Source: a candidate division WOR-3 bacterium | Lineage (GTDB): Bacteria; SDB-A | Assembly: GCA_016934535.1 (NCBI GenBank) | Contig: JAFGSQ010000006.1 | Location: 2,617 to 66,616, forward strand | Length of the DNA stretch: 64,000 nucleotides | Reading direction: 5' to 3' | Part shown: positions 3,390 through 59,954 of the stretch, piece by piece | Position numbering within the stretch: the first letter of the stretch is position 1 | Layout: the number at the start of each line of letters is the position of its first letter | The notes under the pieces: model-generated | Seen by the model: the letters and a program-made list of their open reading frames with translations, nothing else | Database searches by the model: none | What the model was told of the DNA's origin: nothing | Made by a program: the position numbers and the translations under genes

Positions 3390-3405
3390 AACACTCCTCC
3401 GGAAA

Positions 3406-18655: not shown

Positions 18656-18778
18656 GTTGCCTCCTGCGGAAAATGATTTAAAGTAATGATAATACAAACG
18701 CATAAAAAAATAACAGTTTTTTTTGTTTAATGAGCGCATTTGAAATGCCAGTAAAACAATTAAATTGAGAGGCTAATA

Positions 18779-20525: not shown

Positions 20526-20535
20526 TTTTTACGCC

Positions 20536-21645: not shown

Positions 21646-21648
21646 GCT

Positions 21649-22578: not shown

Positions 22579-23500
22579 GCAAACCTTTCATCATGCTGAT
22601 GAAGACGTCTTCCAAACCGGGTTCAACGGGATATGTCTCATAATAATCGGAATTTTTTCTTTCAAGAACATCGGTAATAAATGAGACGTCGACGTTATTT
22701 TTAAATGTTAAGACGTTTACAAAATCCCCGTAAACAAATACGTCCGAGACTTCATTTATGCCGTCGAAGCATCTGGCGATCTCACCAGGTTTTTTACACA
22801 CTATTTTTATTATTTTTCCTGTAAACATCCCTTTTATGCTGTCCGGAGTTCCCTGAGCGATTATTTTTCCGTTGAAAATCAAAGATATGCTGTCGCATTT
22901 TTCGGCTTCGTCTATGTATGAAGTTGAAATGAATACAGATGTTCCTTCTTTAGTCACTCCGGAAAGTATTTTCCAGAATTCCATTCTAGAAACCGGATCA
23001 ACGCCGTTTGTCGGTTCGTCGAGAAATATAATTTGAGGTTTGTGAATCAAAGCACAGATCAGCGAGAGTTTTTGTTTCATTCCCCCTGAAAGATGTCCCG
23101 CTTTTCTTTTGACAAACTCCGACAAATTATACATTTCCAGAAATTTTGAAGATTTTTGTCTGCATTCTTTCCTGTCAACCTCGTAAATATCTGCATAAAA
23201 TTTTATGTTTTCCTCAACAGTTAGATCTCTGTACAAACCGAAGTTCTGACTAACGTAACCGATTTTATTTTTGATTTTTTCCGGATTGTTTGAAGGATTT
23301 AATCCTAATATTTCAACCACTCCGGAAGAAGGATTCATTACTGTTGACAATATTCTTATGAGAGTGGATTTTCCAGATCCGTCAGGACCGATCAATCCGT
23401 ATATTTCATTGCTTTTTACACTTAGAGAAATACAATCAATGGCTCTGACTTTCCCGAAATCCTTTGTAACTTTTTCGACTCTGATAATATCTTCATGCAT
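22571..23500 (-). CDS. ABC transporter ATP-binding protein (second, separate ATPase)
   Basis: Walker A GPDGSGKST, signature LSGGMKQKL, Walker B IFLDEPTNGVD. Overlaps the next ATPase gene by 8 nt. Confidence 0.85.
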   Translation of the reverse strand: MHEDIIRVEKVTKDFGKVRAIDCISLSVKSNEIYGLIGPDGSGKSTLIRILSTVMNPSSGVVEILGLNPSNNPEKIKNKIGYVSQNFGLYRDLTVEENIKFYADIYEVDRKECRQKSSKFLEMYNLSEFVKRKAGHLSGGMKQKLSLICALIHKPQIIFLDEPTNGVDPVSRMEFWKILSGVTKEGTSVFISTSYIDEAEKCDSISLIFNGKIIAQGTPDSIKGMFTGKIIKIVCKKPGEIARCFDGINEVSDVFVYGDFVNVLTFKNNVDVSFITDVLERKNSDYYETYPVEPGLEDVFISMMKGLHA

Positions 23501-23504
23501 CTCA

Positions 23505-24470
23505 TTAATATATTATTTCAATTGTCACCGGCATACCTGATTTAAGGGACTCATCACAATTCGGAACAAGTGCGTTAATTTCATAGACTAAACCGGCTCT
23601 GACATCTTCAGTATAAACAACAGAAGGTGAAAATTCTGCTTCGTTTGAGATGTTCAGAATTTTTCCCTCGAAAATGTTGTCTTCATCAGAACCAAAAAAG
23701 ATCGATACTTTCTGATTCAACCTGATGTTTCCGAGCTGATCTTCACTAATCCAAAAATTTACAATCACAGTATCCAACATACTTATCCGCGCAACTTCTT
23801 TCCCGGCCGCAACAATTTCCCCGCTTGCATAATTCAATTCTTCGACTACACCTTTTACAGGTGAAATTAAATATGTTCTGTCAACTTGAAGCTGGGCAAG
23901 TTCCAGGGACTTCTCGGCGGCGATTACTTTTTCAATCGCAATTTCAATATCTTCAACCCTGTTTCCTTCGTTTGCCAAAGAAAATTCCTGGAATGAAGCG
24001 CTGGTTTGTGCCTCTGCAATCTGGAATTCAGCCAATGCTTTGTCATAATCCTGCCGCGGCACATTTCCTTCTTCATAAAGAGCCTCTATGCGTAAAAGAT
24101 TTTCTTTAATCAATTCAAGTCTTGTCTGATTTTGTTTAAGAACATAATATGTTCTGCTGATTTCCTGGTTTCTCAGACCGGCTTGCAGTTTTTCCAAAGA
24201 CGCCCGCGCACCCGACAATTCTGCCAGCCTTAAGTCTCTGTTCAGTTCGAATTCTATCCTCTCTAATTCGGCAATAGTGTCGCCTGTTTCAATTTGTTCA
24301 CCCTCTTTAAAATTCACTTTGGAAATTCTTCCGCCGACAAGAAAAGCAAGCCTCAATTCGTCGGCCTCGACGAATCCGTAACATTTGATTTTTTGGATTT
24401 TATTTTGTTCACAGTCAGTTAAACTGACAAGACAAAAAAATAATATAATTTTTGATGATACATGTTTCAT
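23505..24470 (-). CDS. HlyD-family membrane-fusion / periplasmic adaptor protein
   Basis: 321 aa. N-terminal signal/anchor, long coiled-coil region and a C-terminal beta-barrel segment typical of HlyD/YbhG. First gene of a YbhGFSR-like operon. Confidence 0.8.
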   Translation of the reverse strand: MKHVSSKIILFFCLVSLTDCEQNKIQKIKCYGFVEADELRLAFLVGGRISKVNFKEGEQIETGDTIAELERIEFELNRDLRLAELSGARASLEKLQAGLRNQEISRTYYVLKQNQTRLELIKENLLRIEALYEEGNVPRQDYDKALAEFQIAEAQTSASFQEFSLANEGNRVEDIEIAIEKVIAAEKSLELAQLQVDRTYLISPVKGVVEELNYASGEIVAAGKEVARISMLDTVIVNFWISEDQLGNIRLNQKVSIFFGSDEDNIFEGKILNISNEAEFSPSVVYTEDVRAGLVYEINALVPNCDESLKSGMPVTIEIIY

Positions 24471-24686: not shown

Positions 24687-27600
24687 ATGAAAAACAACAC
24701 GCCATCTTTTATACATGAACGCTTCAAATCCTCTCAGCAATACGGCGTATTTCCTTGTTCCGCAGTGACTATTAATCTTTCCGGTCTTCCCGGAATCATT
24801 GAAAAACTGAAAGATTATAAAAGCGAGGGTTTTACCGAATTCACGGCAAACATTACCAAAATTTACACGCCAATAATCGAGACCATATATCGCCACAGCG
24901 GATTTGTATGTAAATTTTTCAGCGACCAGTTTATAGCCGTTTTCCCACATGAAAATCCGTCCCCTTCAGCAGACAATGCAATTTTTTGCAGTCTCAGTAT
25001 ACTTAAAAAAATGAAAGATCTTGCCAGAATCAAAACTCCATTCGGAGATTACTTTATTTTTTGTAAAATCGGCATCGGAACTGGAAACGCCGATTGGGGA
25101 ATTTTCGGAAAAAAGGAAAAAAATTATTATTTTAAAGGCGACTCGTTCATAAAGTCCTACATGTCGATTTCCGCCGGAGCTCTGAACCGCGTGACACTCG
25201 ACGAATCCACGGTAAAATTGATTACTGACGAAAACATCAAGGCTTCGCTTTTCAGGCAGAAAAATTTCTTTTACGCTGAAAACGTAGATTCAGCTTTGAT
25301 GTCAACGGAATTCACTGATCCAAAATACACGGAAGTAAATGACGAAAGCTTTACTCGAACGGACCTATCAAAACTCCAGGACGGTGATTTCAGCCAGATC
25401 ACATCGCTTCTGACTTCTTTTGACGACAGAGCGTTTGACAACGAAGAAGAATTGATCGATTTTCTTTCATTCGTCTTCGAAAACTCCCGTAAAGACGGTT
25501 TGCTTTTCGGCGGACTTATACATTTCAAACCCAACCCTCACTTGACGTTCTATTTTGAATCAGAAGATGCGCAAAATATTGAAAACGCAGTAAAATCAAT
25601 TTTCCTGGCTGAAAAAGAATTTAAAATTTCAACTCGGACCGTAATGACGAGAGGTATCTCTTACGTTGGCTTCCTCGACACACAATATTATAAAGATTTC
25701 GTTTGTATTAGCCGTTCAATAAACACAGCAGAAATGATTTTGACTCAAACAACTGAAAAAGGAATTTTGATAACAGAAGAGATAAACGAGAAAATTAAAG
25801 ATTCGGTAAATACTCTGCCTCATTCTTCGTTCGTCGAAAAAGGATCCATCAAAGAAACGAGGATTTTCAAGGTTGTCAATAAAAAGACTACCGAACCCGC
25901 AAAAGGGCTTTTTAAAGAGAGGATCGTTTACGGAGAAAAATGTCTAAAGTTCGTAAAACCGTTTCTTGAAAAAAATTTTCCTGGAATAATTTATATTTAC
26001 GGCGACCAGGGCTCCGGAAAAACATTTTTTGCAAACGAGCTTTCAAAAAAATTGAAATCTTCAGTTTTTCTTCTTCACGGAAACCCAATTTTCAACGAAT
26101 CTTTGAAGCCGTTCAAGGATTTTTTCAATGATTTTTTTTTCAAAGAAGAAAGCGCTCAGGACAAGAAAGAAGCGTTCATCCAGAAATACGAAATATTTTT
26201 AAAAAAATGTCAATCATCGACTTCTGAAGGAAATGTTGTTTTAAATGAAGAATTGATAAGAACTCCGACGATTATTGCAGCTTTGACCGGTTTGGAGTGG
26301 GAAAACTCTGTTTACAACAGCGTAGAACAGTGTAATAGGTTTGAAAACTCGGTTTTTGCCATTAAAAATTTTATGCTCTCTGTCGCTTTTATGAATCCTT
26401 TAATTTTAATACTGGATGATTTTCAATACTTTGACCAGGATTCATTGAGCGTCATCCAGGTACTGACGCGCGATATCGCGAACCGTCAACTTCTCATTAT
26501 AGCAACCGCCCGATGTGAAAAAGGTTCTGAAAAACCGAAACTGCTTCTCGACGAAGATGTCCCAAGTCTCGAAATCGAACTTGCAAAAACTTCTATTCAA
26601 GCTCTCGAAGGATTTATAGTATCCTTTCTCGGAGAAGATTCGCCAGACAAATTAATAAACAAAATTACGACTCTTTCTTCCGGAAACCCCTACTTAGCCG
26701 AACAACTGTGTCTTTTGGCAGTGGAAGCACAGGAACAGAAAGAGGAACTGTATTCAAAATTACAAAGCAAAATAAATGAGATTGCAGCCAAAAGAGTTGA
26801 CTTTTGGGAGGAAAAATTACGTGACTCTGTCATTTTCTGTGCGATTTTAGGTAATCATTTCGACAAAAAATCACTCACAGCTTCAAATCCATCGAAAATC
26901 GAAGATTCAAAACTAATCAACTTTTATGACTCTCTCCTGGATGAAGGAGTAAAAAAACAGATTTGGACAATTTCGGCGCCCACCCACATATTTTTTAGAA
27001 ATGAAGAACTCAGAAAATCCATAGTCCAAAACTTGAGCGAAGAAAAAAGAACGACCTTACACCTTGAAGCGGCTAAAGTCCTTGAAACTCTGTTTGGAGA
27101 TGATAAAACACGATTCACTGAAATCGCCTTTCATTTTCAAAGAGGCGGAGACATCGTCAAGGCGGTTAAATACTATATCGATTCCGCCGAATGGTCTTTC
27201 TTTAATTACAGACTTGAAGAATCCGTTGGCCTCTTGAGGACGGCTTATGAGATAGAGAAAGATTTGACAAAAAAATTCGAAATATTATTGAAAATGTTCT
27301 CTGTTCAGAAAGAAATGAAAATTTTTCAGATAGACGAAATACTATACGGACAGGCGGATGAATATTTCCGCTCTGAGAATGACACACCATCTTCCGTAAA
27401 ATTGCTATATTACAGGGCTCATTCTTTTCTCAAGGAAGACGATAAAGACAGAGCTCTCGAGTATATTGAACAGGCGAAAAATCTTGCCGAAGAAAATAAT
27501 CAAACCGAACTTCTGCCTGAAATTTACAAATTTTTTGTTCCTATGCTCATAGAAACACGCAGATTCGAAAAGGCGGAAAAAAGCCTCGATTCTTTCGAAA

Positions 27601-28412
27601 AACTTCCGGAAAAAACCGTCGAACCGCACCTTGGAGACATTATTTCATTCAAAGGGACAATCTTGATGAATAAAGGGAAATTTGACCAGGCACTTGAAGT
27701 GTTCGACAAGGCGGTCACAATTTTTGAAAACAATAAAAATCTGTCCGGTATGGCACCTGTTCTCGACAATGTATCAAAGATATATTTCAAAAAAGGTAAA
27801 GCCGGAAAAGCTTTGGAATACAGTATAAAGTCGCTAAACGTCGGCAAAGAGATAGGTTCATACAAGACCATGGTAATAAATCTGCACAACATAGGCGGAG
27901 TCTTCATGAAGGCGAGAGATTTCAACAAGGCCGTAAAATTTCTCGAACAATCCCAGCGTTTGTCCCGCGAGCTGAAAAACTACAAACTTGAATCTTACGT
28001 CCTCGACAAACTTGGAGACATAGAAAGAGCGAGAGGCTACATGGCAGAGGCTATGTCTTTTTACGAAAGGTCTCTTGAAAACCGTTTAAAACTGGGTGAC
28101 TTGATTGCCGCTGGAAAATCGTTTAAATTCATCGGCGACGTTCTCAGCAGTCAGAACAACTTTGATAAAGCCAAAGAATATTACGTAAAAAGCATGTCGT
28201 ATTTTAAGAAAGCCGATGACAGGAAATCATTGGCCGAATCAATAGAAAGCTTCGGAACAAACGAGTTTAAAAAAGACAAACAAAACAAATTCAAGACTCT
28301 CAAATGCTTGGAACACGCATGGAACATATACGAGAGCCTTAGCGACTACGACAGACTGACCAACCTCGAAAAACTTATAAACCAGGTCACGTGGGAAGGC
28401 ATAGACATCTGA
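24687..28412 (+). CDS. Paralogous multidomain protein: two degenerate cyclase-homology-like domains + P-loop STAND ATPase + TPR repeats
   Basis: Same overall architecture as 9756..13742. Walker A GDQGSGKTFF. The cyclase-like regions lack the FxDxxGFT Asp (VTINLSGLPG) and have degenerate N/R motifs, so they are probably non-catalytic. C-terminal TPR array. Confidence 0.7.
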   Translation: MKNNTPSFIHERFKSSQQYGVFPCSAVTINLSGLPGIIEKLKDYKSEGFTEFTANITKIYTPIIETIYRHSGFVCKFFSDQFIAVFPHENPSPSADNAIFCSLSILKKMKDLARIKTPFGDYFIFCKIGIGTGNADWGIFGKKEKNYYFKGDSFIKSYMSISAGALNRVTLDESTVKLITDENIKASLFRQKNFFYAENVDSALMSTEFTDPKYTEVNDESFTRTDLSKLQDGDFSQITSLLTSFDDRAFDNEEELIDFLSFVFENSRKDGLLFGGLIHFKPNPHLTFYFESEDAQNIENAVKSIFLAEKEFKISTRTVMTRGISYVGFLDTQYYKDFVCISRSINTAEMILTQTTEKGILITEEINEKIKDSVNTLPHSSFVEKGSIKETRIFKVVNKKTTEPAKGLFKERIVYGEKCLKFVKPFLEKNFPGIIYIYGDQGSGKTFFANELSKKLKSSVFLLHGNPIFNESLKPFKDFFNDFFFKEESAQDKKEAFIQKYEIFLKKCQSSTSEGNVVLNEELIRTPTIIAALTGLEWENSVYNSVEQCNRFENSVFAIKNFMLSVAFMNPLILILDDFQYFDQDSLSVIQVLTRDIANRQLLIIATARCEKGSEKPKLLLDEDVPSLEIELAKTSIQALEGFIVSFLGEDSPDKLINKITTLSSGNPYLAEQLCLLAVEAQEQKEELYSKLQSKINEIAAKRVDFWEEKLRDSVIFCAILGNHFDKKSLTASNPSKIEDSKLINFYDSLLDEGVKKQIWTISAPTHIFFRNEELRKSIVQNLSEEKRTTLHLEAAKVLETLFGDDKTRFTEIAFHFQRGGDIVKAVKYYIDSAEWSFFNYRLEESVGLLRTAYEIEKDLTKKFEILLKMFSVQKEMKIFQIDEILYGQADEYFRSENDTPSSVKLLYYRAHSFLKEDDKDRALEYIEQAKNLAEENNQTELLPEIYKFFVPMLIETRRFEKAEKSLDSFEKLPEKTVEPHLGDIISFKGTILMNKGKFDQALEVFDKAVTIFENNKNLSGMAPVLDNVSKIYFKKGKAGKALEYSIKSLNVGKEIGSYKTMVINLHNIGGVFMKARDFNKAVKFLEQSQRLSRELKNYKLESYVLDKLGDIERARGYMAEAMSFYERSLENRLKLGDLIAAGKSFKFIGDVLSSQNNFDKAKEYYVKSMSYFKKADDRKSLAESIESFGTNEFKKDKQNKFKTLKCLEHAWNIYESLSDYDRLTNLEKLINQVTWEGIDI

Positions 28413-28557: not shown

Positions 28558-28698
28558 TTAATTATTTTTCTCTTCTTTTTCACAGCATCCTTTTTTCTCG
28601 CAGGGATGCTTGGAATTTTCGCCGTGGCATTCTTTTATCTGTTCTTTTGAGCATTCTCCGGGTTTGACATCTTTTTCGCAGTGTTTTTTCTTACACAT
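28558..28698 (-). CDS. Unannotated 46-aa Cys-rich (7 Cys) peptide, possibly a metallothionein-like metal-binding peptide
   Basis: Translation: MCKKKHCEKDVKPGECSKEQIKECHGENSKHPCEKKGCCEKEEKNN. RBS AAGGAG 6 nt upstream. It lies downstream of arsR on the same strand and is followed by a strong terminator. It overlaps the 3' end of the arsR ORF by ~64 nt in another frame. Confidence 0.3.
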   Translation of the reverse strand: MCKKKHCEKDVKPGECSKEQIKECHGENSKHPCEKKGCCEKEEKNN

Positions 28699-28982
28699 CT
28701 GTGGCTCCTTTTTTGGGTTTTCAATAAATAGTCATGATACTCTTTTAAAAAAATTTCCACCTGTTCTTTTTCGACTGAATAATGCGCGAAATACCCGGTT
28801 TTTATCGCTTTCACGAAACCGGCTTCCCTCAATATTTTCAGGTGCTGAGAAACAGCGGATTCGGATATTCCGGTGATTTTTGAAACGGCTTTTCCGCAGA
28901 GATTTCCCGAAGATATCAGCGACATTATTTTAGCTCTCGTAGGGTCTAACAAAGCCCTTATTTTCTTTTCTTCAATTTTCAT
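28635..28982 (-). CDS. arsR: ArsR/SmtB-family metalloregulatory transcriptional repressor
   Basis: wHTH core AVSKITGISESAVSQHLKILREAGFV. Length ~115 aa with a Lys-rich C-terminal tail. Confidence 0.8.
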   Translation of the reverse strand: MKIEEKKIRALLDPTRAKIMSLISSGNLCGKAVSKITGISESAVSQHLKILREAGFVKAIKTGYFAHYSVEKEQVEIFLKEYHDYLLKTQKRSHRCVRKNTAKKMSNPENAQKNR

Positions 28983-30732: not shown

Positions 30733-32922
30733 ATGTTTTCCCTATTTTTCCTCCTGTTCTTCTCATTTACAAACCAAATCCAGGAAAGACAGATGCTGGT
30801 CAGAATTTTTGTAGACGACTACAGAATTTTAAGGACTATAGACGAAAAAGGACTCGATATAGCCGGAAGAGAGTACGGCGAATACTGGGACATAGTCGTC
30901 ACGCCGCAAAAATTCAATTCTGTAATCGCGTCCGGTTTGCCGTACGAGATTGTTTCCCAAAACATCGAAGGTTTGAAAGATCAGGTCAGGGGTCAATATC
31001 ACAGCTACGATCAGGTCGTCGCTATTATGCGAAACTACGCTTCGACATATTCGTCTATCTGTAAACTCGATTCGATAGGAAAAAGTTACGAAAACAGATG
31101 GATTTACGCCCTTAAAATATCAGACAATCCTTCGTACGAAGATCCCGACGAACCGGGGATCCTCTTCGACGCGCTCCATCACTCAAGAGAATGGGCGACA
31201 ATTGAGGTCGTTCTTTTCTACGCCGACACCCTCTGCAGGGGATACAACAACGACCCCGTATTGACTTCTCTCATCAACGACAACGAAATATGGCTTATTC
31301 CGATGGTCAACGTCGACGGTTATGTCTATGACTACCCCGGTCAGGAATGGTGGAGAAAGACGAGAAAACCTTTCGGCGGATCAACCGGAACAGACCCGAA
31401 CAGAAACTATCAAGGTTGTTTCATGGGCGATCCCTTCGGCGACTGGGGAGCCATACCTCCGGACGCTTCGATGTCCCATTACCCCAGCCAGGAGACTTTC
31501 TGCGGAGCATACAGCGGATGGTCTGAAGAAATTTCAGCAATGGTAAATTTTCACAAAACTCACGAAATAAACGCGAACATAACTTACCACAGCTACGCCC
31601 AGGAAATCCTGTGGCCATGGGGACACACGAGCACCGTGCTTCCTCCCGACAACACGGCAATCGTAAATATAGCCAACCAGATGGCTTCAAGAATTCAAAA
31701 GGTCAACGGAGGAAATTACGTAGCCTCATCGAGTCTTTATCCTACTTCGGGCTCTACAGATGATTTCGTTTACGGATATCATTACTTCATCCATGGTTTT
31801 CCCTGTTTTTCCTACACAATTGAAGTCGGAACTGCATTCTACCAGAACGTCAACAATCTCGATCAGATAGCCCACGAAAACTGGGAAGGAGCGCTTTATT
31901 TCGCCCAACAGGCGGCGACCATACGGCAGAATTATCCATCGAGAGTTCCGTCTTCTGATATATCTGCTCCCGACACAGCAGTTTCAAATTCCTGCCTCAT
32001 AACATGGGCTCCTGTCTTCGCCACTTATAACACTCCCGATCTATGGCAGTTGGACAGGCTTTCAGGCTATTCGTTTACATCTGACGGTATTGAATCCGGA
32101 ACCGCGAACTGGATTCTCTCGGGTTTCACTCAGAGCACTGCTAGAAAACACGCTGGAACCTACAGTCTTTATTCAGGTTCACAGAACAACATCGCCAACA
32201 CCGCACAGACGAGATATCCATACATCGTCCAGCCCAACGACACTTTCTCGTTCTGGTGCTGGAACTACTCCGAGAACAATTATGACGTCACTATTGTGGA
32301 AATCTCGGAAGACGGACTGGCCTGGAATCAGCTCGACACGAGGTACACAGGAAGCCAGCAGACCTGGACTCAGAAAAAATACTCCCTTGCCCCGTGGCAG
32401 GGAAAAGCAGTTTACTTCAGGTTCAGAACCATAACTGACGACGGAACACTGAACGAGAATTTCTATGTTGATGACATATCGCCTGTCGCTCATTTCAATC
32501 AAATCGAGGTTCTGGACAGCATAATCTGTGACACTTTTTATACGGCGACAAGCCTTCCTCTAGGTGAAAGTTATTTCCGAGTCCGCGGCCACAATACGAG
32601 AGGCTGGGGCAATTATTCCAACACGGGTAAAACGATCATCGTTCAGGGAAACTCTGTGGAAGAACCGGTCCAGGTTTTTGCCGGAAATATTTCCGTATTC
32701 AACAATTCCAAAAACATCGAGATAAGATACAGTTTACCCTCCGGTCAGGATATGAGCGTGAACATTTTCGACGTAACGGGAAGACAGGTAGGCAATTACA
32801 GATATCAGAACCTTTCCGGCGACGACAGAATTCAGATATCACCCGCGTCGGAAGGCGTTTTATTCGTTCACGTCAATTCAGGTGAAATAAACATTACAGA
32901 GAAAGTGCTTATAATAAGATAA
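30733..32922 (+). CDS. Secreted M14-family zinc carboxypeptidase with T9SS C-terminal sorting domain
   Basis: Signal peptide. M14 motifs HSREW, NVDGYVY and HSYAQ. The C-terminus IFDVTGRQV...GVLFVHVNSGEINITEKVLIIR is a T9SS CTD. Confidence 0.8.
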   Translation: MFSLFFLLFFSFTNQIQERQMLVRIFVDDYRILRTIDEKGLDIAGREYGEYWDIVVTPQKFNSVIASGLPYEIVSQNIEGLKDQVRGQYHSYDQVVAIMRNYASTYSSICKLDSIGKSYENRWIYALKISDNPSYEDPDEPGILFDALHHSREWATIEVVLFYADTLCRGYNNDPVLTSLINDNEIWLIPMVNVDGYVYDYPGQEWWRKTRKPFGGSTGTDPNRNYQGCFMGDPFGDWGAIPPDASMSHYPSQETFCGAYSGWSEEISAMVNFHKTHEINANITYHSYAQEILWPWGHTSTVLPPDNTAIVNIANQMASRIQKVNGGNYVASSSLYPTSGSTDDFVYGYHYFIHGFPCFSYTIEVGTAFYQNVNNLDQIAHENWEGALYFAQQAATIRQNYPSRVPSSDISAPDTAVSNSCLITWAPVFATYNTPDLWQLDRLSGYSFTSDGIESGTANWILSGFTQSTARKHAGTYSLYSGSQNNIANTAQTRYPYIVQPNDTFSFWCWNYSENNYDVTIVEISEDGLAWNQLDTRYTGSQQTWTQKKYSLAPWQGKAVYFRFRTITDDGTLNENFYVDDISPVAHFNQIEVLDSIICDTFYTATSLPLGESYFRVRGHNTRGWGNYSNTGKTIIVQGNSVEEPVQVFAGNISVFNNSKNIEIRYSLPSGQDMSVNIFDVTGRQVGNYRYQNLSGDDRIQISPASEGVLFVHVNSGEINITEKVLIIR

Positions 32923-40798: not shown

Positions 40799-41896
40799 TT
40801 ATTTGTTTTCAATTTCAAATCTTTTATCAATGAATTTAGAATTCATAATCCTCAATACCCCGAGATAATCCAATTTAAATTCAAGAAAATCTCCGGTTTT
40901 GTAATTTTTGGGATTGTCTCCAAGATCAATCACAAACATATCTGAACTGGCTCCAATTATTGAATATGAGTCGTCGGCAGGGAAAACATGGTTTTTATCT
41001 ACATCGAGTATACCTATGTCAATTATAGCCCGATGTGAATTTTTATTAGCTTCGTTTATATCATGTCTTTGACTTTCTCCCTCAATGTTAGTCCCCATAT
41101 CGCCTATTGGTATACTCGGTTTATTTTTAAGTTCGATTATTTCGCAGTATAGTTTAAAAACGTCAGGATGAAGGTCTTTTAACGGCGCTCCGTTGTAGAC
41201 ATCCGTTCCCAAAAACAGAGATTCTCCCACTCTGAAATGATTTATTCCCCTGGGCAAAAGATTTTGAAAAATTAAAGGTATGGTAACAGAGGCTCCCCCT
41301 GAAACAAGCGGAATCCTTTTTCCGAATTTAGCTTCAATTAATTGCTTATATAAACTTAACTGTATTAGTTTATCATGATTCGGAAGCACTCCATTCAAAC
41401 AAGCAAGGTTTGTCCCAATTCCAACAACTTCTATATTTGGAAGTTCGAATATTTTTAAATAAAAATCCATCAATCTGTCTCTCATGACACCTTCTCTAAG
41501 CTCCCCCATCTCAATCATAATAATAATCTTATGTATTTTGTTCTGACACTGGGCTTCTTTGGATAAAAGGCCAACGGTTTTCAATTCTGTATTAAGACTA
41601 ATATCTGCATATTTTACGACACTTGGAATTGATTTCTGTGGCGGGGGTTTTATGTAAATCGTTTCAACGCCGGGATCTATACTTTTAACCATCTTCAAGC
41701 TCGAAAGTCTCGAGTCGCAGACCTGATCTACGTTTAATTTCAGCACTTCTTCGAGATATTCTCTGTTTCCGCAGAGAAGTTTAGTGACTACGGCCCATTT
41801 TATTTCGTGTTTTTTAAATATCTTGTCGAGATATTTGTAGTTAGACCTTAATTTTGAGCTGTTTAATGTTATTTTGGCCATATCACTATTTGGCAA
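40799..41896 (-). CDS. PLP-dependent fold-type III enzyme, alanine/ornithine racemase-like (YhfX/Orr family)
   Basis: 365 aa with an N-terminal TIM-barrel-like segment carrying the Lys (WAVVTKLLCGN) and a C-terminal beta domain. The assignment is tentative. Confidence 0.45.
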   Translation of the reverse strand: MPNSDMAKITLNSSKLRSNYKYLDKIFKKHEIKWAVVTKLLCGNREYLEEVLKLNVDQVCDSRLSSLKMVKSIDPGVETIYIKPPPQKSIPSVVKYADISLNTELKTVGLLSKEAQCQNKIHKIIIMIEMGELREGVMRDRLMDFYLKIFELPNIEVVGIGTNLACLNGVLPNHDKLIQLSLYKQLIEAKFGKRIPLVSGGASVTIPLIFQNLLPRGINHFRVGESLFLGTDVYNGAPLKDLHPDVFKLYCEIIELKNKPSIPIGDMGTNIEGESQRHDINEANKNSHRAIIDIGILDVDKNHVFPADDSYSIIGASSDMFVIDLGDNPKNYKTGDFLEFKLDYLGVLRIMNSKFIDKRFEIENK

Positions 41897-50961: not shown

Positions 50962-51549
50962 CTATATGTCTTTTCGGGGATATACTTTTAAATACGGTGA
51001 TTCACCGGAGCAATTTTTGCATTTGTCTCCGTGTTTGACGGGATATGCTTCTTTACAAACCGGGCAAATTCCTGAGGGACCGCCTCTTTCTCTTGTCAAT
51101 TTTTTCGAATCGACAAGCACATTTTGCCGGCTTAGAATATTTTGGCCGGCTTCTTTGATCTGAAACAGCAAAAGATCTTTGTCTTGATCTTTTTTTGGTT
51201 TAAGCTTAAAAAACCAACTGTTGATTTCAGGCCAATTTATCAATTTTTCCGCATCAAGATAAACTCTCACGCCGTTGCCGGATTTTTTTTCATATAATGT
51301 AACGGCAAATTTTCCAAAATCAAAAACTTTCAGCCATCCGTTGCCTATTGTACAAGGAGTGAGTATCTGAACGGCGTCGGGAAGACATGACTGAGTTTCG
51401 CAAATGGCGTCAAAAAAATCTCCTTCGGGAAGATTTTTCATGGCTAAATCAATAATAAAGCCGCCTATCAGCAAACCGGGAGCCAGACTGCCGTGAAAAG
51501 ATTCGACCAGTCTGATATATTCTTCGTATGAGTATTTCCCTATGTTCAC
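50962..51549 (-). CDS. FmdE-family protein with C-terminal zinc ribbon, a frequent partner of tungstate/molybdate uptake genes
   Basis: 195 aa. N-terminal FmdE-like domain with conserved Cys (CETQSCLPDA). C-terminal CPVCKEAYPVKHGDKCKNCSG. Confidence 0.65.
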   Translation of the reverse strand: MNIGKYSYEEYIRLVESFHGSLAPGLLIGGFIIDLAMKNLPEGDFFDAICETQSCLPDAVQILTPCTIGNGWLKVFDFGKFAVTLYEKKSGNGVRVYLDAEKLINWPEINSWFFKLKPKKDQDKDLLLFQIKEAGQNILSRQNVLVDSKKLTRERGGPSGICPVCKEAYPVKHGDKCKNCSGESPYLKVYPRKDI

Positions 51550-51568: not shown

Positions 51569-52282
51569 TCAGTATGCCAATGCCAGTTTCGGCTCCCTCG
51601 CCGCTTTGTTTACTTTTCCCTCGTCTGCTTCTGTATTTAATAATTGCTGATCCCATTCCTTGTCAATTTTCCCGTCAACAATCGGCAACATCTCATCCGC
51701 GAGGAACAATGCTTCGTTAATGTCGTGAGTGACATAAACTATCGGAACAGAAAGACTTTGCTTTAATTTTTTCAATTCCTCTCTGAGACTGCGGCGCGTG
51801 ACAAAATCCAGGGCAGAGAACGGCTCGTCCAGAAGAAGAATCTTCGGTTTTCTCGCGAGCGCCTGACAGAAGGCGCATCTCTGTCTTTCGCCGCCAGACA
51901 CCTGATAAGGTTTTCTGTCTGAAATATGGCTTATTTTAAACGCATCAAAAAGGTCGTAAACCTCTTTTTTATCGACGGCGGCAAACGCAGCATTATCAAA
52001 TAAACTGAGGTGCGGGAAAAGTGTGTAATCCTGGAACACATATCCGGTTCTTCTTTTCTGCGGAGATAAAAACCGCTTGGCGGAAGAATCGAACCATACA
52101 TCATCGCTTACGGATATTTTTCCCGTGTCCGGTTTTTCGAGTCCTGCGAGCATTCGAACGACAGTTGTCTTGCCGCTGCCGGAAGGTCCAATCAACACTG
52201 CTATCTTGCCTTCTTCGCAGGAAAAAGATAAGTCAATTACATAATGGTAAAGTTTCTTCTTTAAAGATACGCTTAATGACAT
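51569..52282 (-). CDS. Tungstate/molybdate ABC transporter ATP-binding protein (TupC/ModC-like, no Mop domain)
   Basis: Walker A GPSGSGKTT, signature VSGGERQR, Walker B LLLDEPFSALD. 237 aa with no C-terminal Mop domain. Confidence 0.8.
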   Translation of the reverse strand: MSLSVSLKKKLYHYVIDLSFSCEEGKIAVLIGPSGSGKTTVVRMLAGLEKPDTGKISVSDDVWFDSSAKRFLSPQKRRTGYVFQDYTLFPHLSLFDNAAFAAVDKKEVYDLFDAFKISHISDRKPYQVSGGERQRCAFCQALARKPKILLLDEPFSALDFVTRRSLREELKKLKQSLSVPIVYVTHDINEALFLADEMLPIVDGKIDKEWDQQLLNTEADEGKVNKAAREPKLALAY

Positions 52283-52935
52283 ATTCTTTTTTCAGTAAGT
52301 TTATTGACAACCAGTAAAAACACAAAACTTATCGGGATCATGCTCAAAGACAAAATTCCCGCGGTCGAGTAATCCATCTTTTCAACCGCTTCGTAAATAG
52401 CTATAGATGCAACCTTCGTGACGCCTCTTATGCTTCCTCCGACCATGACTATTACCCCGAAAGCTCCCATTGTGTGAATGAAAACAAGGACTGCTGCAGC
52501 GACGATTCCGCTGATGCTGTTCGGCAGGACAACTTTGAAAAAAACTTTCGGTTCCGACAAACCGAGCACTTTTGCGCTTTCAATGAGCCTCGTGTCGATT
52601 TTTTGAAACGCAGCTTTCATCGGCTGAACCGCGAAAGGCAAGCTGTATATCACAGTGGCTATTGTAATTGCAATAAAAGTAAAAAGAAGAGTACTTCCCG
52701 TCGCTTTTTCCCAGATACGGCCTATAAAACCTTTCGGCCCCATTGCCATTATCAGATAAAATCCTATCACTGTCGGGGGCAAAGCGGTCGGAAGATAAAG
52801 AAACGATTCAATGAACGGTTTTCCTTTGAATCTGTTGAAAGCCAAAAAATAAGCGAGAGGAGCTCCTAAGACCATCAAAACGGCAGTTGTTGTAAACGCA
52901 AGCTTCAGTGTGACGTATAGAGGCAGTAGATCCAT
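52273..52935 (-). CDS. Tungstate/molybdate ABC transporter permease (TupB/ModB-like)
   Basis: 220 aa with 5-6 TM helices and an EAA-like loop (ESAKVLGLSEPKVFFKVVLP). Confidence 0.8.
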   Translation of the reverse strand: MDLLPLYVTLKLAFTTTAVLMVLGAPLAYFLAFNRFKGKPFIESFLYLPTALPPTVIGFYLIMAMGPKGFIGRIWEKATGSTLLFTFIAITIATVIYSLPFAVQPMKAAFQKIDTRLIESAKVLGLSEPKVFFKVVLPNSISGIVAAAVLVFIHTMGAFGVIVMVGGSIRGVTKVASIAIYEAVEKMDYSTAGILSLSMIPISFVFLLVVNKLTEKRICH

Positions 52936-53724
52936 CTATTCGTAACCGTATCTGACATTTATTTGATTTACTTCATTCGACGACAAAAATTTAATAAACT
53001 CTTCGACCGCTCTTCTGTTTTCAGTTCTGACAAGCAAACAGGCGGATTGTATGACGGGAGGAGCTTCTTCAACGAAGAAATAACTTCCCTTCTCTCCTTC
53101 GGAGGAAAAAACAGAAGAGTAAGCGCAGAAACCGGCGTCCACTGCTTCAGTGGATGCGTACTGAAAGGCCTGGGCGATCGTCTGGGCAGTTACAATTCTA
53201 TCTGACACAGTTTCGGCTAATCCTGCAGATTCCAAAGCTATCAAAGCAGAAGTCCCGTATGGAGCAGTTTCAGGATTGGCCAAAGCAATTTTTGATATAT
53301 TTTCCCTTGCCATGGCTGATTTCCAGTCTCCGGAATCCGCGAAATTCGCGTCAGCCGACCAGAGCACTACTTTGCCGCGGGCATATATAAAAGGTTTTTC
53401 CGAAAGCCCTGCGCTGAAAAGAGATTCCGGTCTTTCTTCGTCGGCAGAGAAAAAAATGTCGTAAGGAGCACCGTTGATTATCTGATTATAAAGGTTTCCT
53501 GAGGATGTGAACGTCGCCTCTATTTCTATACCGGTCTCTTTCTCAAAAGCGGCTTCAATCTCACCGAAGGGCTGAGTGTAGTTTGCCGCGACCGCGACCT
53601 GAATACTTTCAGTTTTTTTTTCACAACCGGTAAATGATAGAACAGAAATACTGACAATTGAAAATACAAAAAATAACGATTTTAATTTCATTTTATAGCG
53701 TCTCCGATATTTGTCACATAACAT
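52936..53724 (-). CDS. Periplasmic oxyanion-binding protein (TupA/ModA/WtpA-like)
   Basis: Signal peptide with lipobox (LSFTGC). A 262-aa type-II substrate-binding protein fold. First gene of the ABC cassette. Confidence 0.75.
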   Translation of the reverse strand: MLCDKYRRRYKMKLKSLFFVFSIVSISVLSFTGCEKKTESIQVAVAANYTQPFGEIEAAFEKETGIEIEATFTSSGNLYNQIINGAPYDIFFSADEERPESLFSAGLSEKPFIYARGKVVLWSADANFADSGDWKSAMARENISKIALANPETAPYGTSALIALESAGLAETVSDRIVTAQTIAQAFQYASTEAVDAGFCAYSSVFSSEGEKGSYFFVEEAPPVIQSACLLVRTENRRAVEEFIKFLSSNEVNQINVRYGYE

Positions 53725-53758
53725 TTAAGGCATAAAAAAACTCACAAACCAATATAAT

Positions 53759-53782
53759 ATCCGGGCATTTTTGAGCCCGGAT
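53759..53782 (-). terminator. Inverted repeat ATCCGGGC-atttttga-GCCCGGAT 19 nt downstream of fdhA; a weak terminator candidate or regulatory hairpin
   Basis: Perfect 8-bp stem. The T-run on the minus strand is not immediately adjacent, so intrinsic-terminator strength is uncertain. Confidence 0.3.
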
Positions 53783-53800
53783 ATCATATCTCTTAAAAGC

Positions 53801-56488
53801 TCAGATTTTTTCTATTTTTACCGCGCAAGCTTTGTATTCGGCGGTTTTCGTGTCAGGATCAAACACGTTGTTTGTCAGCCAGTTCGCATTTCCTTCCCTG
53901 AAATGAAAAGCCATCCAGACCAGACCGGGTGGAATTTTTTCCGTCACTTTCGCCCTGACTTTCACCGATCCACGGCGGGAGCTTACTTTTATGTACTCAC
54001 CGTCTTTGATTTTCATTTTTTTTGCGTCTTCAAGTGAAATGTCGGCTGTTTCTTCAGGCAGGATCTTGTCCAGCCCCACTCTTTTGGTCTGTGTTCTCGT
54101 GTGATAGTGGAACAGTCGGCGCCCAGTGCTGAGAACGAAGGGATATTCAGCATCTTCGACCTCCGCAGGCGGCGTCCATTCGACACCTTTGAACAGTCCT
54201 TTACCCCGGGAAAATTTTCCTTCTTTATGGAGAAACTTCGTTCCGGGATGTTCCACTGTCGGGCATGGCCACTGAAGTCCGTCTTTTTCTATTCGGTTAT
54301 ATTTTATCCCGCCGTAAGCAGGGGCGCACACCGAGATTTCGTTGTCCCAGATTTCCTGCGCGCTGTTGGACTGCCAGTCATGCCCCATGCGTTTTGCAAT
54401 CTCCTTGAAAATCCACCAGTTCGGTTTTGATTTTCCGGGAGCTTCCTTGATTTTGCGCACGCGGTTGACACGTCTTTCGCTATTTGTGAATGTTCCTTCG
54501 TCTTCACACCAGGCCGCCGCTGGAAGTATGACGTGGGCAAACCGTGTGGTCTCAGTCGGGAATATGTCGTTGCATACAATAAACTCTGCGGAAGAGAGTT
54601 CATGCTCGACATGTGTGATGTTAGGTTCAGAATTTGCGAGATTCTCGCCGAATATATAGAAAGCCCTGACTTTATTTGTCGGAAGTCCGGCCATCATATC
54701 GGGAAGCATCAGTCCCACTTTGTCAGAAAGATTTGAAACGTTCCAGAACTTTTCGAACTTTTCTTTATTTTTCGGATCGGTAACCGCCTGGTATCCAGGA
54801 TAAACATTCGGTAGAGCCGCCATGTCGCAGGCGCCCTGGACATTGTTCTGACCGCGAAGCGGGTTCACTCCGCCGCTTTCTTTGCCCATGTTTCCTAAAA
54901 GCATCTGGAGGTTGGCGGTAGACATGACGTTGTTTTTTCCGCATGTGTGTTCTGTTATGCCGAGCGTGTAACAGAGCATGGCGGGTTTGACAGACGCCAT
55001 CGTTTTGGCTATTTCTATGATTTTCTCGGTGGGAACACCGGATATAATTGAGGCTTTTTCGGGCGGATAGTTCATGACCGTTTTTTTAAGTTCCTCAAAA
55101 TTCTCGCAGTTTTCCTCGACAAACTTCTTGTCGTAGAGATTCTCGGTTATCAGAACATTCATGATGCCATTGAGAAAAGCAATGTCCGAACCCACCTTTA
55201 TCTGTGCAAAAATGTCCGCCTTCTTAGCCAGATCGTGTTTTCTGGGATCGGCTACGATAAGCTTTGCGCCTTTTTTCTTTGCGCGTTTGACGAAATACGA
55301 AGCCACGGGATGCGCTTCCGTCATGTTTGTGCCGATCAGGAAAAACATCTTGGCGTTTTCAAATTCACCGAAAGAATTTGTCATCGCACCGGAACCGAAG
55401 GTAGTTGCCAGACCGGCAACTGTCGGAGCGTGTCAAGTTCGTGCGCAATGGTCAATGTTGTTTGTGCCTACGACGCTCCTGAAAAGCTTCTGCATGTTGT
55501 AGGAGTCTTCGTTTATGCTCCTCGCACAGCTGACAGCAGCGAGAGCATCGGGACCGGATTCTTTCAAAATCTGCTTGAATTTGTCAGCGACCAGACAAAG
55601 AGCTTCGTCCCAGTCTGCTTCCCTGAACTTGCCGTCTTTTTCCCTTATCAGAGGAGTCGTAAGTCTGTCTTTATCATAAATGAAGTCGTAACCGTAGCGC
55701 CCTTTGACACAAAGATGCCCTTGATTCGGTTTCGCTTCATCAACTCCTTTGACTCTTACAATCTGATCCCCTTTAACCCACAACTCAAGCTGACAGCCCA
55801 CACCGCAGTATGGACATGTAGTTCGTACTTTTTCTATCTCCCAGGCCCGCGCTTTTCCCATGCCTTTTTTGTCCACCAGGGCTCCTACAGGGCATAACTG
55901 AACGCATTCCCCGCACTGAACGCACGTTGAATCTCCCATCGGACTGTCCTCATCGCAAACTACTTTTGTGTGTCCGCCCCTGTATCCAAAATCAAGAACT
56001 TCATTGACCACAAGATTGTTACATCCCTCTATACAGCGTCCGCACTGAATACACTTGCCGAAATCTCTCATTATGAACGCGGCGCTTTCGTCCTTCTCCT
56101 CTTTCTGTTCGACCAAAAAAGCAGGTACTTCAATTCCAAGATGATAAGCGGCGTCCTGAAGTTCGCAGTCTCCGTTGCGCTCGCACGACAGACAGTTGTG
56201 ATTCCCGTTGGCTAAAAGCAGGTTGACTATCATCTTGCGAGATTCAATAATTGTTTCAGTATTCGTCCTGATTTTCATCTGGTCTGCCGCCGCCAGCGAA
56301 CATGAGGTCTGCAGTCCTCTCATGCCCTCTACCTCTACAACGCATATTCTGCACATGCTCGCAGGACCGATTTTGGTATGATAACAGAGCGATGGAATGT
56401 AAATATCATTCTCCCTCGCAACCTGAAGTATTGTTTTATCACCTTCAAAGGTTATCTCTCTTCCGTCGATAATCATTTTTTTGCTCAT
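53801..56488 (-). CDS. fdhA: Formate dehydrogenase catalytic (alpha) subunit, NAD-linked FdhA/FdsA type, selenocysteine-containing (in-frame TGA at 55433-55435)
   Basis: The ORF track splits it into 55433..56488 and 53801..55384. Reading through the TGA in frame gives ...[53 protein letters not shown]..., which matches the FdhF Sec motif CARVUHGPSVAGL. The N-terminus has NuoG-like 2Fe-2S/4Fe-4S Cys clusters. The C-terminus has the molybdopterin-dinucleotide-binding domain. Confidence 0.85.
55395..55432 (-). promoter_or_regulatory. Bacterial SECIS element (selenocysteine insertion hairpin) immediately 3' of the UGA
   Basis: mRNA: UGA CAC GCU CCG ACA GUUGCC-GGUCU-GGCAAC UACC. E. coli fdhF: UGA CAC GGC CCA UCG GUUGCA-GGUCU-GCACC. 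Shared features are the same spacing from the UGA, a 6-bp stem and the GGUCU apical loop. Confidence 0.7.
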
Positions 56489-58223: not shown

Positions 58224-58428
58224 GCCTTTTCCTTTACTGTTTGCTTTCCACCAAGTTCAGCGTACGTAAATAAAAATTTATTTTGAAAAAAGACGGCATA
58301 TTATACAAGAATACTTTTATTATGAGAATTAAAAAAATAATTTTTTTTACAGAATAAATGATTCGAAAATGTTGTCTTTATTTGGGGTACTTGTTTAAAT
58401 GTTCACATTGATCCTGCATACGTAGAAA

Positions 58429-59187
58429 TCAATCGCTTGTCGGGAATATTTTTGTTTGACACCTTACAAGATTAACAAGCTTTATACCTCCGCATTTTTT
58501 CATCGCACTGAAGCTCATACCTTTTTTTATATTTTCAAGAACGAGATCAGTATCAGTGACATACGAACCGGAAATAACGTCTATACCATAATCGAAAAGA
58601 ATTTTCGTCAATGGAGTGGTCGGCCCTAATAAAATTTTAACGCTTTCATCCGGGCAAAGCTTTAGAAGATTCGATAAAGTGTGATTTATAAAAGTTGTGC
58701 TCGTTATGGCAATGATGTCCGACTCGGGTAAATATGTCTTGCTGTCGCCTTCCTGAAAGTCTCCCGGCTTAGGCTTTTTTTCAATAACCCACAGATTTTT
58801 AGTGACATTCCTGAGTTCATCGACAAAAGGAAAATGACCTACGACAGACACGTTTTTCCCTTTTCCTGATTTTATAATGAAATCCTTGGAATTAAATTCC
58901 TCACAAGATTCAATATCAATGTCAATGACAGAATTTATCGCGGCCATACCGAGTGATGCTTCGGCAATATCGTCCGAAAGAGATAATGAAGCGAGTTTAT
59001 CGGCGGACATGTCCGAATATTTATCGGCAAAGTTTTCATGTCCGTATTTCCCGCAATTTCTTCCGTTTAAAGCAGAAGATAATCCGCATCGCCTGCTGAC
59101 AACGCCCGTCCAAAGAGAGCCTTTTCTTATTGCGCTTACTTTCACTCCCTTTTCAAGGTCGGATATTATTTCTTTGAGAATTTTCAT
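58429..59187 (-). CDS. DUF364/DUF4213-like Rossmann-fold protein (putative heavy-metal chelation domain)
   Basis: Start set at the internal ATG (MKILKEIISD) that overlaps the upstream stop as ATGA. ~250 aa, paralogous to the adjacent gene. The family assignment is from memory of PF04016/PF13938 and needs checking. Confidence 0.45.
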   Translation of the reverse strand: MKILKEIISDLEKGVKVSAIRKGSLWTGVVSRRCGLSSALNGRNCGKYGHENFADKYSDMSADKLASLSLSDDIAEASLGMAAINSVIDIDIESCEEFNSKDFIIKSGKGKNVSVVGHFPFVDELRNVTKNLWVIEKKPKPGDFQEGDSKTYLPESDIIAITSTTFINHTLSNLLKLCPDESVKILLGPTTPLTKILFDYGIDVISGSYVTDTDLVLENIKKGMSFSAMKKCGGIKLVNLVRCQTKIFPTSD

Positions 59188-59954
59188 GTTGACGCCTTTT
59201 CTCTGCTCCGCGGGCATATTCTGTTCAATCCCAACAATTCGCATATTCCTGCGCATGTGACACCGAAAATTATATACTTTTTATTGTGTCGGCATATTTT
59301 TTCCCAGATACCGTCAAACGAGTCATTTACAAAAGTTGTACCTGTGAGAAGAACAACGTCAGATTCCCTGATGAGTCTTTCAGTTTCGGTTTCGCCGTCC
59401 CAAATTATTGTTCCATACTTTTCCACTCCTATATTCGCAGGATTTAGATCGGTTGCTCTTATGTTCCCGGTTCCGAAATTTCTGCGGAGGGAATCCAGTA
59501 TGGCGGGATTCAATCCTATGAGGCCAACGACGGAAGAAGAAAACTCATTATTAATGAATGAAGATATTTCCTGAGCACATTCTTCCGGATCCTCGTCTTT
59601 GCAGTGGATGGTGTTTTTCACAATTGAAAGATGTTTCAAAACAGAGTTCATTGCGGCGATAAACAAAGCACGTCTGCTGTTGTCAGAAAGCGACATTTCT
59701 AACACATCTTTCAACTTTCCTGTAAATTCCCTTGGCGTGTCAGTAAATACGTGCGCTTTTGACCCGACAAAATCAGCCTCAATTACTCTTTCTTTACCGA
59801 TCAGGATAGGGAAATCCCTCCTTCCCGGCGAACCTATGGCTTCTTCCGGTGACAGGGTTTTAACAAGTATCGAGATATTACAATCCATAAGATTCTTTTC
59901 TATTACTATTTTTCTGAATATTTCTTTTGCAGTTATCAGTGCTTTAGTTATCAT
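59184..59954 (-). CDS. DUF364/DUF4213-like Rossmann-fold protein (paralog)
   Basis: 256 aa with similar length and pattern (VVLLTGTTFVND...IIFGVTCAG) to the downstream paralog (ILLGPTTPL...VISGSYVTD). Confidence 0.45.
   Translation of the reverse strand: MITKALITAKEIFRKIVIEKNLMDCNISILVKTLSPEEAIGSPGRRDFPILIGKERVIEADFVGSKAHVFTDTPREFTGKLKDVLEMSLSDNSRRALFIAAMNSVLKHLSIVKNTIHCKDEDPEECAQEISSFINNEFSSSVVGLIGLNPAILDSLRRNFGTGNIRATDLNPANIGVEKYGTIIWDGETETERLIRESDVVLLTGTTFVNDSFDGIWEKICRHNKKYIIFGVTCAGICELLGLNRICPRSREKAST

Follow-up and report, generated by a model that had tools for sequence, protein, structure and literature searches.

We analysed a 64,000-nucleotide stretch of contig JAFGSQ010000006.1 from a candidate division WOR-3 bacterium, hereafter the window, and find that positions 53801-56488 of its minus strand are almost certainly a single gene, fdhA, for the selenocysteine-containing catalytic subunit of a cytoplasmic formate dehydrogenase (FDH) with a Mo- or W-bis-pyranopterin guanine dinucleotide (bisPGD) cofactor, co-transcribed with a NuoE-NuoF fusion. 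In the list of open reading frames (ORFs) the locus appears as two abutting pieces in the same minus-strand frame, one at 55433-56488 (351 amino acids) and one at 53801-55384 (527 amino acids, from its first ATG). The codon that splits them is the TGA at 55433-55435, the sole in-frame stop inside 53801-56488; the gene itself also ends in TGA (53801-53803). The original prediction had described an FDH catalytic gene interrupted at its selenocysteine (Sec) motif, and its coordinates, motif and hairpin sequence are all as claimed.

Translated through the TGA, with X at that codon, FdhA carries the Pfam domains Fer2_4, NADH-G_4Fe-4S_3, Fer4 (4Fe-4S dicluster), Molybdop_Fe4S4, Molybdopterin and Molydop_binding. 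The Molybdopterin domain covers residues 275-700, unbroken across the TGA at residue 352, and the N-terminus is a NuoG-like Fe-S domain with 2Fe-2S and 4Fe-4S clusters. The NCBIfam model for formate dehydrogenase subunit alpha, TIGR01591, matches over its entire length (model positions 1-672 of 672) with 833.3 bits against a cutoff of 666.25. The top solved relatives of the catalytic part are 7qv7_S (FdhF of the hydrogen-dependent CO2 reductase, HDCR, of Thermoanaerobacter kivui; 1.4e-209), 9t1s_L (an F420-dependent FDH) and 7bkb_D. FdsA of Rhodobacter capsulatus (6tg9_A) and the alpha subunit of Methylobacterium extorquens FDH1 (7vw6_A/7e5z_A) align over residues 5-892, the NuoG-like N-terminus included.

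The position of the TGA coincides with the catalytic residue of these enzymes. Its column holds the catalytic Cys in the PDB chains 7qv7_S, 7bkb_D and 7vw6_A, and X in 9t1s_L. E. coli FdhF (formate dehydrogenase H, taken from NC_000913) is 43% identical to FdhA over 676 aligned columns and places the TGA on its Sec140, with Sec352, His353 and Arg545 of FdhA corresponding to E. coli Sec140, His141 and Arg333. Arg545 sits in the invariant motif RGQNNVQG. A 4Fe-4S motif of the form C-x2-C-x3-C-x(n)-C (CPYCGVGC...C) begins at residue 225, and the residues U352-H-A-P agree with the U-H-x-P motif listed for selenoprotein FDH in PMC13188914, Table 1. Alignment to E. coli FdhF and Rhodobacter FdsA had been put forward as one way to check the original prediction, and both alignments agree with it. 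The family score, the active-site residues and the recurrence of the TGA in homologs support, on sequence grounds, the identification of the gene as a selenocysteine FDH.

One genome per species was scanned, which listed at least 80 related loci, and the motif could be located in 72 of them. Among the matches listed, TGA occupies the same codon in 52 loci and TGT or TGC in the other 20. The TGA-bearing loci come from Chloroflexota, Thermodesulfobacteriota, Bacillota, Planctomycetota, Nitrospirota, Bacteroidota and other phyla. Among the best 120 database matches, 116 are fragments of about 502-550 amino acids that start past the TGA, and the remaining four are full-length (895-899 amino acids) and all carry Cys. 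The expectation that naive gene callers would split such a locus is thus borne out, and near-identical Logan contigs are likewise called as proteins of 351 and 527 amino acids.

A sister allele is present in three independently assembled Logan contigs (ERR14947309, ERR14947315 and ERR14947316) and differs from the window at 119 nucleotides (95.6% identity). All three assemblies keep both the TGA and the hairpin that follows it, the sole change in the hairpin region being at nt 33, in a non-conserved outermost pair. Synonymous and non-synonymous codon changes between the two alleles stand at 34:5 upstream of the TGA and 67:9 downstream, and therefore both halves of fdhA are under purifying selection, as expected of expressed coding sequence.

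The hairpin in question is a candidate selenocysteine insertion sequence (SECIS; Table 1), which we number from the U of the UGA as nt 1. The conserved core is 6 bp, nt 16-21 with nt 27-32. The minimum free energy (MFE) structure given by RNAfold holds GUUGCC/GGUCU/GGCAAC, lengthened to 7 bp by an A-U pair, with an energy of -9.3 kcal/mol for nt 15-33 alone and -10.1 kcal/mol for nt 13-36. The bacterial SECIS (bSECIS) model of PMC13188914 (Fig. 2 legend) allows loops of 3-9 nt on stems of 4-16 bp, asks for a G at loop position 1, 2 or both, separates UGA and loop by 16-37 nt and demands an MFE of -7.5 kcal/mol or lower; the window has a 5-nt loop on a 7-bp stem, a loop starting with GG (G22 and G23), a spacing of 18 nt (positions 4-21) and -9.3 kcal/mol, in agreement on all four counts. 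The hairpin also fits the general rule of PMC4605307, a 6-8 bp stem whose loop carries a conserved G some 20 nt past the UGA.

Comparison between homologs reveals that this helix follows the UGA. The cells of the 7-bp helix are paired in 90.6% of cases across 53 Sec-type sequences versus 55.0% across 20 Cys-type sequences, and none of the six core pairs falls below 96% pairing among the Sec-type sequences, the outermost pair 15:33 being the non-conserved one (paired in 24 of 53). Pair 18:30, which joins the third (wobble) positions of one Val and one Ala codon, occurs in the 53 Sec sequences as GC 33 times, CG 12, UA four, AU three and UG once and is never unpaired; pair 21:27 likewise varies on both sides. 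In some genomes, such as those of loci L020 and L028, the amino acids themselves are altered in a way that keeps the pairing (V-T-G-L-V-T, with GUGACC/GGUCAC). The covariation score is 0.414 compared to a shuffled mean of 0.201, with none of 500 shuffles reaching the observed pairing or covariation, and when the 3' partners are shifted by 1-3 columns, pairing falls to 23-61% and the covariation score to at most 0.178. The loop reads GGTCT in 42 of 54 Sec sequences versus six of 20 Cys sequences, and U24, the wobble base of a Gly codon within the loop, is T in 47 of 54 versus seven of 20. Synonymous-site constraint at the hairpin is confined to the TGA-bearing homologs. The structure is conserved with compensatory changes in Sec-type and not in Cys-type orthologs; it is thus selected only where the codon is UGA, which is the signature of a SECIS.

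The Rfam model SECIS_3 (RF01989) aligns to window positions 55380-55438 over its full length (1-59 of 59) with 43.1 bits and an E-value of 4e-9, exactly on the UGA and the hairpin. Its consensus encodes U-H-A-P-T-V-A-S-L-A, i.e. it is an FDH SECIS like that of the window; unlike the window it has a bulged U, a GUC triloop closed by A-U and a lower stem, and those positions mispair in the window. Covariation, synonymous-site constraint and this match, which falls below the family threshold, support a functional SECIS as far as sequence comparison reaches.

The resemblance to the E. coli fdhF SECIS is partial. The original prediction had called it a match almost base for base, in sequence, loop and distance from the UGA. 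This is true of the 5' arm and loop (nt 16-27, 11 of 12 identical) and of the spacing, both hairpins beginning 11 nt after the UGA with G23 and U24 in the apical loop, but not of the 3' arm (nt 27-33, one of seven identical; 27 of 45 overall), the bulge or the loop geometry. The E. coli hairpin consists of G15-C31, G16-C30, a bulged U, and then U-A, G-C, C-G and A21-U26 closing a GGUC tetraloop, whereas the stem in the window is an uninterrupted 7 bp in which C21-G27 closes a GGUCU pentaloop; in the same folding test the E. coli sequence folds with its bulge. The shared nt 16-27 also encode a conserved V-A-G-L peptide in the same register, and Cys-type genes share much of the stretch. The SECIS of Moorella thermoacetica fdhA is reported to have been co-crystallised with SelB (Yoshizawa et al. 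2005, cited in PMC4605307). It reportedly has a bulge-less stem and a GGUCU-type loop, and would then be structurally a better model for the window than the E. coli element; we mention this resemblance as a lead and not as a result.

Several observations weigh against a selenocysteine reading. Folded as a single sequence, the hairpin region does no better than chance (z = -1.14, with 26 of 200 shuffles folding equally well or better), so that the RNAfold check proposed for the original prediction does return the claimed hairpin within the MFE structure but does not make it significant alone. The comparative data were used for this reason, and the support for the hairpin comes from the homologs. 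With 43.1 bits the SECIS_3 match falls short of the family's gathering score of 63, because of which a scan of the whole window at gathering thresholds gave no Rfam match and SECIS_3 appears only with E-value thresholds; all eight Sec-type relatives tested (L002, L024, L043, L055, L058, L075, L081 and L084) match SECIS_3 at their UGA with 35.6-61.4 bits, also below 63. Standard Rfam annotation at the gathering score misses this common SECIS type, bulge-less and with a GGUCU pentaloop. In the E. coli SECIS the critical nucleotides are U17, G23 and U24 (PMC8659212, citing Liu et al. 1998). E. coli SelB needs U17 to be bulged (PMC8659212), a feature without a counterpart in the window, where U17 pairs with A31 and a bulge is impossible.

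The remaining counter-evidence concerns the decoding machinery. A tRNA-Sec was not found in the 64-kb window, in which the tRNA scan gave no tRNA at all, and selA, selB and selD were not found in NCBIfam and Pfam scans of 51 of its 52 long ORFs (the one left out, at 28635-28982, encodes 115 amino acids and is put at 43 amino acids shorter than selD-like proteins). The EF-G gene at 14778-16859 encodes a true EF-G (TIGR00484, 997 bits) and not SelB; the protein is 100% identical to an NCBI entry for elongation factor G of a candidate division WOR-3 bacterium. About 3 kb beyond the window, covered by short Logan contigs (SRR13394437), also holds no sel genes. Across 55 related loci a tRNA-Sec lies within 10 kb of fdhA in just one (L059, Perlabentimonas gracilis; 267-359, 9.7 kb upstream of fdhA). 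The sel genes are therefore usually unlinked to fdhA and their absence from the window says little.

We considered other explanations for the interrupted frame. The TGA could be a nonsense mutation or a sequencing or assembly error in what is now a pseudogene, as the naive call of two pieces would have it; moreover, the window's exact NuoEF and DUF3795 proteins are not on record, leaving no second copy of this very allele for comparison. The chance of this is nonetheless close to nil, given the TGA in three independent assemblies of the 95.6%-identical allele and in the 52 listed homologs across phyla, purifying selection on both halves and a covarying hairpin that follows TGA forms only. Nearly all database relatives are annotated by gene callers as if there were two real genes here, a 351-amino-acid N-terminal Fe-S protein and a 527-amino-acid molybdopterin protein starting at the ATG at 55384. 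Such a 527-amino-acid product would have neither the metal ligand (Sec or Cys) nor the catalytic His, and would be missing Molybdop_Fe4S4 as well as the beginning of the Molybdopterin domain. Each Cys-type ortholog is one polypeptide of 895-899 amino acids, and the protein sequence encoded by the 16 codons from the TGA to the ATG is conserved, all of which makes two genes hardly credible.

A genome-wide reassignment of UGA (code 4 or 25, to Trp or Gly) has nothing to recommend it beyond the in-frame TGA itself. TGA is the ordinary stop of 21 of the 52 window ORFs, those of fdhA and nuoEF among them, and a reassigned code is therefore excluded. In agreement with this, homologs have Cys or Sec at the aligned position and never Trp or Gly, and a six-frame scan of the window for TGA-interrupted frames (at least 60 codons on each side) returned, besides fdhA, only antisense or out-of-gene cases; we regard the probability of reassignment as negligible. 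The homolog, assembly, selection and code data therefore dispose of the sequencing-error, pseudogene, two-gene and alternative-code explanations. It is also conceivable that the UGA is decoded mostly as Cys or by near-cognate suppression, for example if the selenocysteine machinery had been lost, and the failure to find that machinery in the window speaks for it. This is a little less improbable than the other alternatives, yet still very unlikely, as the SECIS hairpin is intact and under the constraints seen in 52 further Sec-type genes, it is retained in the sister strain, and loss of the machinery normally leads to conversion of the codon to TGY or to decay of the gene. The original prediction had also suggested a search for further TGA-interrupted selenoproteins; extending reading frames beyond TGA stops, or upstream of their starts, yielded no other credible candidate in the window.

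We hypothesize, returning to a single selenocysteine gene, that the UGA at 55433-55435 would not be read as a stop during translation. The hairpin 11 nt downstream (nt 15-33), exposing G23 and U24 in its GGUCU loop, would be bound by SelB carrying Sec-tRNA(Sec), and SelB would deliver selenocysteine to the A site. In the finished enzyme Sec352 would ligate the Mo or W atom, beside His353 and Arg545. Selenium incorporation, SelB binding, the identity of the metal and the coupling to NAD(H) are points that we infer from established knowledge of selenocysteine decoding and of FDH.

Table 1. Positions of fdhA, its recoding elements and the neighbouring features of the cluster, numbered along the window
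Feature	Position	Strand	Description	Evidence
fdhA	53801..56488	(-)	one 895-codon gene with a single internal in-frame TGA; Sec predicted at codon 352	reading frame; Pfam; TIGR01591; PDB matches
In-frame UGA	55433..55435	(-)	predicted to be read as selenocysteine (Sec352); His353 next; U-H-x-P motif	aligns with E. coli Sec140; TGA in homologs; sister alleles
SECIS hairpin	55403..55421	(-)	nt 15-21 pair with nt 27-33 (AGUUGCC/GGCAACU); apical loop GGUCU, nt 22-26	fold; covariation; Rfam
NuoE-NuoF fusion, 572 amino acids	56505..58223	(-)	thioredoxin-like 2Fe-2S, FMN/NAD(H)-binding 51-kDa and 4Fe-4S domains	Pfam; NCBIfam NuoE and NuoF models
Promoter-like site TTCTCA-17-TATAAT	58300..58328	(-)	upstream of the nuoEF-fdhA operon	consensus match only
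GC-rich hairpin, 10 bp, -19.2 kcal/mol	53757..53784	(-)	begins 17 nt past the stop codon of fdhA; a T-rich tract follows, ahead of modA	
modA	52936-53724	(-)		TIGR01256, 177 bits vs cutoff 62.5
modB	52273-52935	(-)		TIGR02141, 212 bits vs cutoff 183
modC	51569-52282	(-)		192 bits, under its cutoff
FmdE-like gene	50962..51549	(-)	treble-clef zinc finger; last gene of the cluster	PF02663, 2.9e-38; PF23475

The stop codon of nuoEF lies 16 nt upstream of the fdhA start, and a NuoF-like gene stands directly upstream of fdhA in 22 related loci among the matches listed. NuoEF is the presumed diaphorase partner of FdhA. A NuoG-like N-terminus on FdhA together with an adjacent NuoE/NuoF FMN/NAD(H) module is the architecture of R. 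capsulatus FdsABG (6tg9) and of M. extorquens FDH1 (MeFDH1; 7vw6/7e5z), with which the N-terminal Fe-S and catalytic domains of FdhA align at an E-value of about 1e-197. MeFDH1 resembles the window further in that its partner is one NuoE-NuoF fusion polypeptide, of 572 amino acids in both. FdsABG and MeFDH1 differ from FdhA in having Cys and not Sec at the metal. By sequence the NuoEF of the window resembles complex I NuoF (Thermus Nqo1, 7e-110) more than it does the MeFDH1 beta subunit (2e-77), its matches to FDH beta subunits in the PDB (6vw7_B, 7e5z_B and 9wxb_C) lying at 1e-77 to 1e-80. No homolog of FdsD or of FdsC/FdhD was recognised in the window.

Other well-studied enzymes share the catalytic part alone. 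E. coli FdhF has the same catalytic domain with UGA at the homologous codon, but is without the NuoG-like N-terminal Fe-S domain and belongs to the formate hydrogenlyase complex, with no NuoEF diaphorase. FdhF of the T. kivui HDCR, the best-scoring solved catalytic relative (over residues 218-895), is in contrast a Cys enzyme, also without the NuoG-like extension, and is wired to a hydrogenase filament instead of NuoEF. NuoEF most likely couples the interconversion of formate and CO2 to NAD(P)+/NAD(P)H. The electron acceptor would be NAD+ or NADP+ and the enzyme non-bifurcating; by sequence the NuoF part is closest to complex I NuoF and not to the bifurcating HydB-type subunits. The direction of the reaction and the choice between Mo and W are likewise things that we infer.

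Downstream of fdhA the first element is the GC-rich hairpin (Table 1), possibly a partial terminator or an mRNA stabiliser. It was also considered as a second SECIS and rejected, its loop UCAAAAAU being without a G at the start and the downstream frame not being conserved coding sequence. The modABC genes that come next (51569..53724), directly downstream of fdhA, are by their family matches a molybdate (or tungstate) ATP-binding cassette (ABC) uptake system. The FmdE-like protein may be an accessory factor of the FDH, related to its cofactor or maturation; FmdE homologs are found near fdhA also in loci L002, L005, L007 and L022. The sister strain has the same cluster gene order.

Two overlapping DUF364/DUF4213 genes annotated as 'putative heavy-metal chelation' lie on the minus strand just upstream of the FDH operon, at 58429-59256 and at 59184-59954; ahead of them come a DUF3795 gene and an S-adenosylmethionine (SAM) methyltransferase gene, and the sister strain (L082) has them in the same order. 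Among the related loci, L077 holds a Cys-type fdhA paralog (at about 14273), 4.3 kb downstream of the Sec-type gene, and L024 has a molybdenum/tungsten cofactor (Moco/Wco) riboswitch just downstream of fdhA (3001-3120), a riboswitch of which there is none in the window.

Elsewhere the window contains a C25 (gingipain-like) peptidase and two proteins with the Por_Secre_tail sorting domain of the type IX secretion system (T9SS) (7296-9536; 17540-18739; 30733-32922). T9SS sorting domains together with a gingipain-like peptidase fit a bacterium of the Fibrobacteres-Chlorobi-Bacteroidetes (FCB) group. Two very large signalling proteins with AAA_16 ATPase and TPR domains, similar to signal transduction ATPases with numerous domains (STAND), are encoded at 9756-13742 on the minus strand (1328 amino acids) and at 24687-28412 on the plus strand (1241 amino acids), the former also carrying an adenylate/guanylate cyclase domain. 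A five-gene cluster at 19407-24470 (minus strand) combines an HlyD-type adaptor with an ABC-2 exporter, whose two ATPase subunits and two permeases are each similar to halves of RbbA. The regions 1018-4551 and 40799-41896 encode a butyrate kinase, a phosphate butyryl/acetyl-transferase, a Na+/solute symporter and an ornithine racemase-like protein, and genes for pyruvate:ferredoxin oxidoreductase are found shortly before the window begins (L086). The set with butyrate kinase points to a fermentative, amino-acid-using anaerobe.

WOR-3 corresponds to the phylum Caldifarciminota, and a full-text literature search found no discussion of selenocysteine in WOR-3. The nearest FdhA among the matches listed, which are species representatives, is 84% identical and comes from a metagenome-assembled genome labelled Leptospirales, a relationship that hints at lateral mobility of the cassette. 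One could go further and propose jointly that this is the first noticed Sec-decoding trait in WOR-3 (Caldifarciminota), that the trait was acquired with a laterally mobile nuoEF-fdhA(Sec) cassette, and that the FmdE-like and DUF364/DUF4213 genes are dedicated maturation or metal-handling factors. We consider this combination improbable as a whole.

No bacterial selenoprotein is more widely distributed than FdhA (PMC13188914). The gene described here is an ordinary representative of that family and carries the usual recoding signal, and its value is one of annotation and not of discovery. The proper gene call is one selenoprotein of 895 amino acids, with a translation exception noted at 55433-55435, in place of two genes or a pseudogene. 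For the biology of this WOR-3 bacterium the finding indicates a need for selenium and for Mo or W, and it suggests that the organism can probably interconvert formate and CO2 in a reaction linked to NAD(P).

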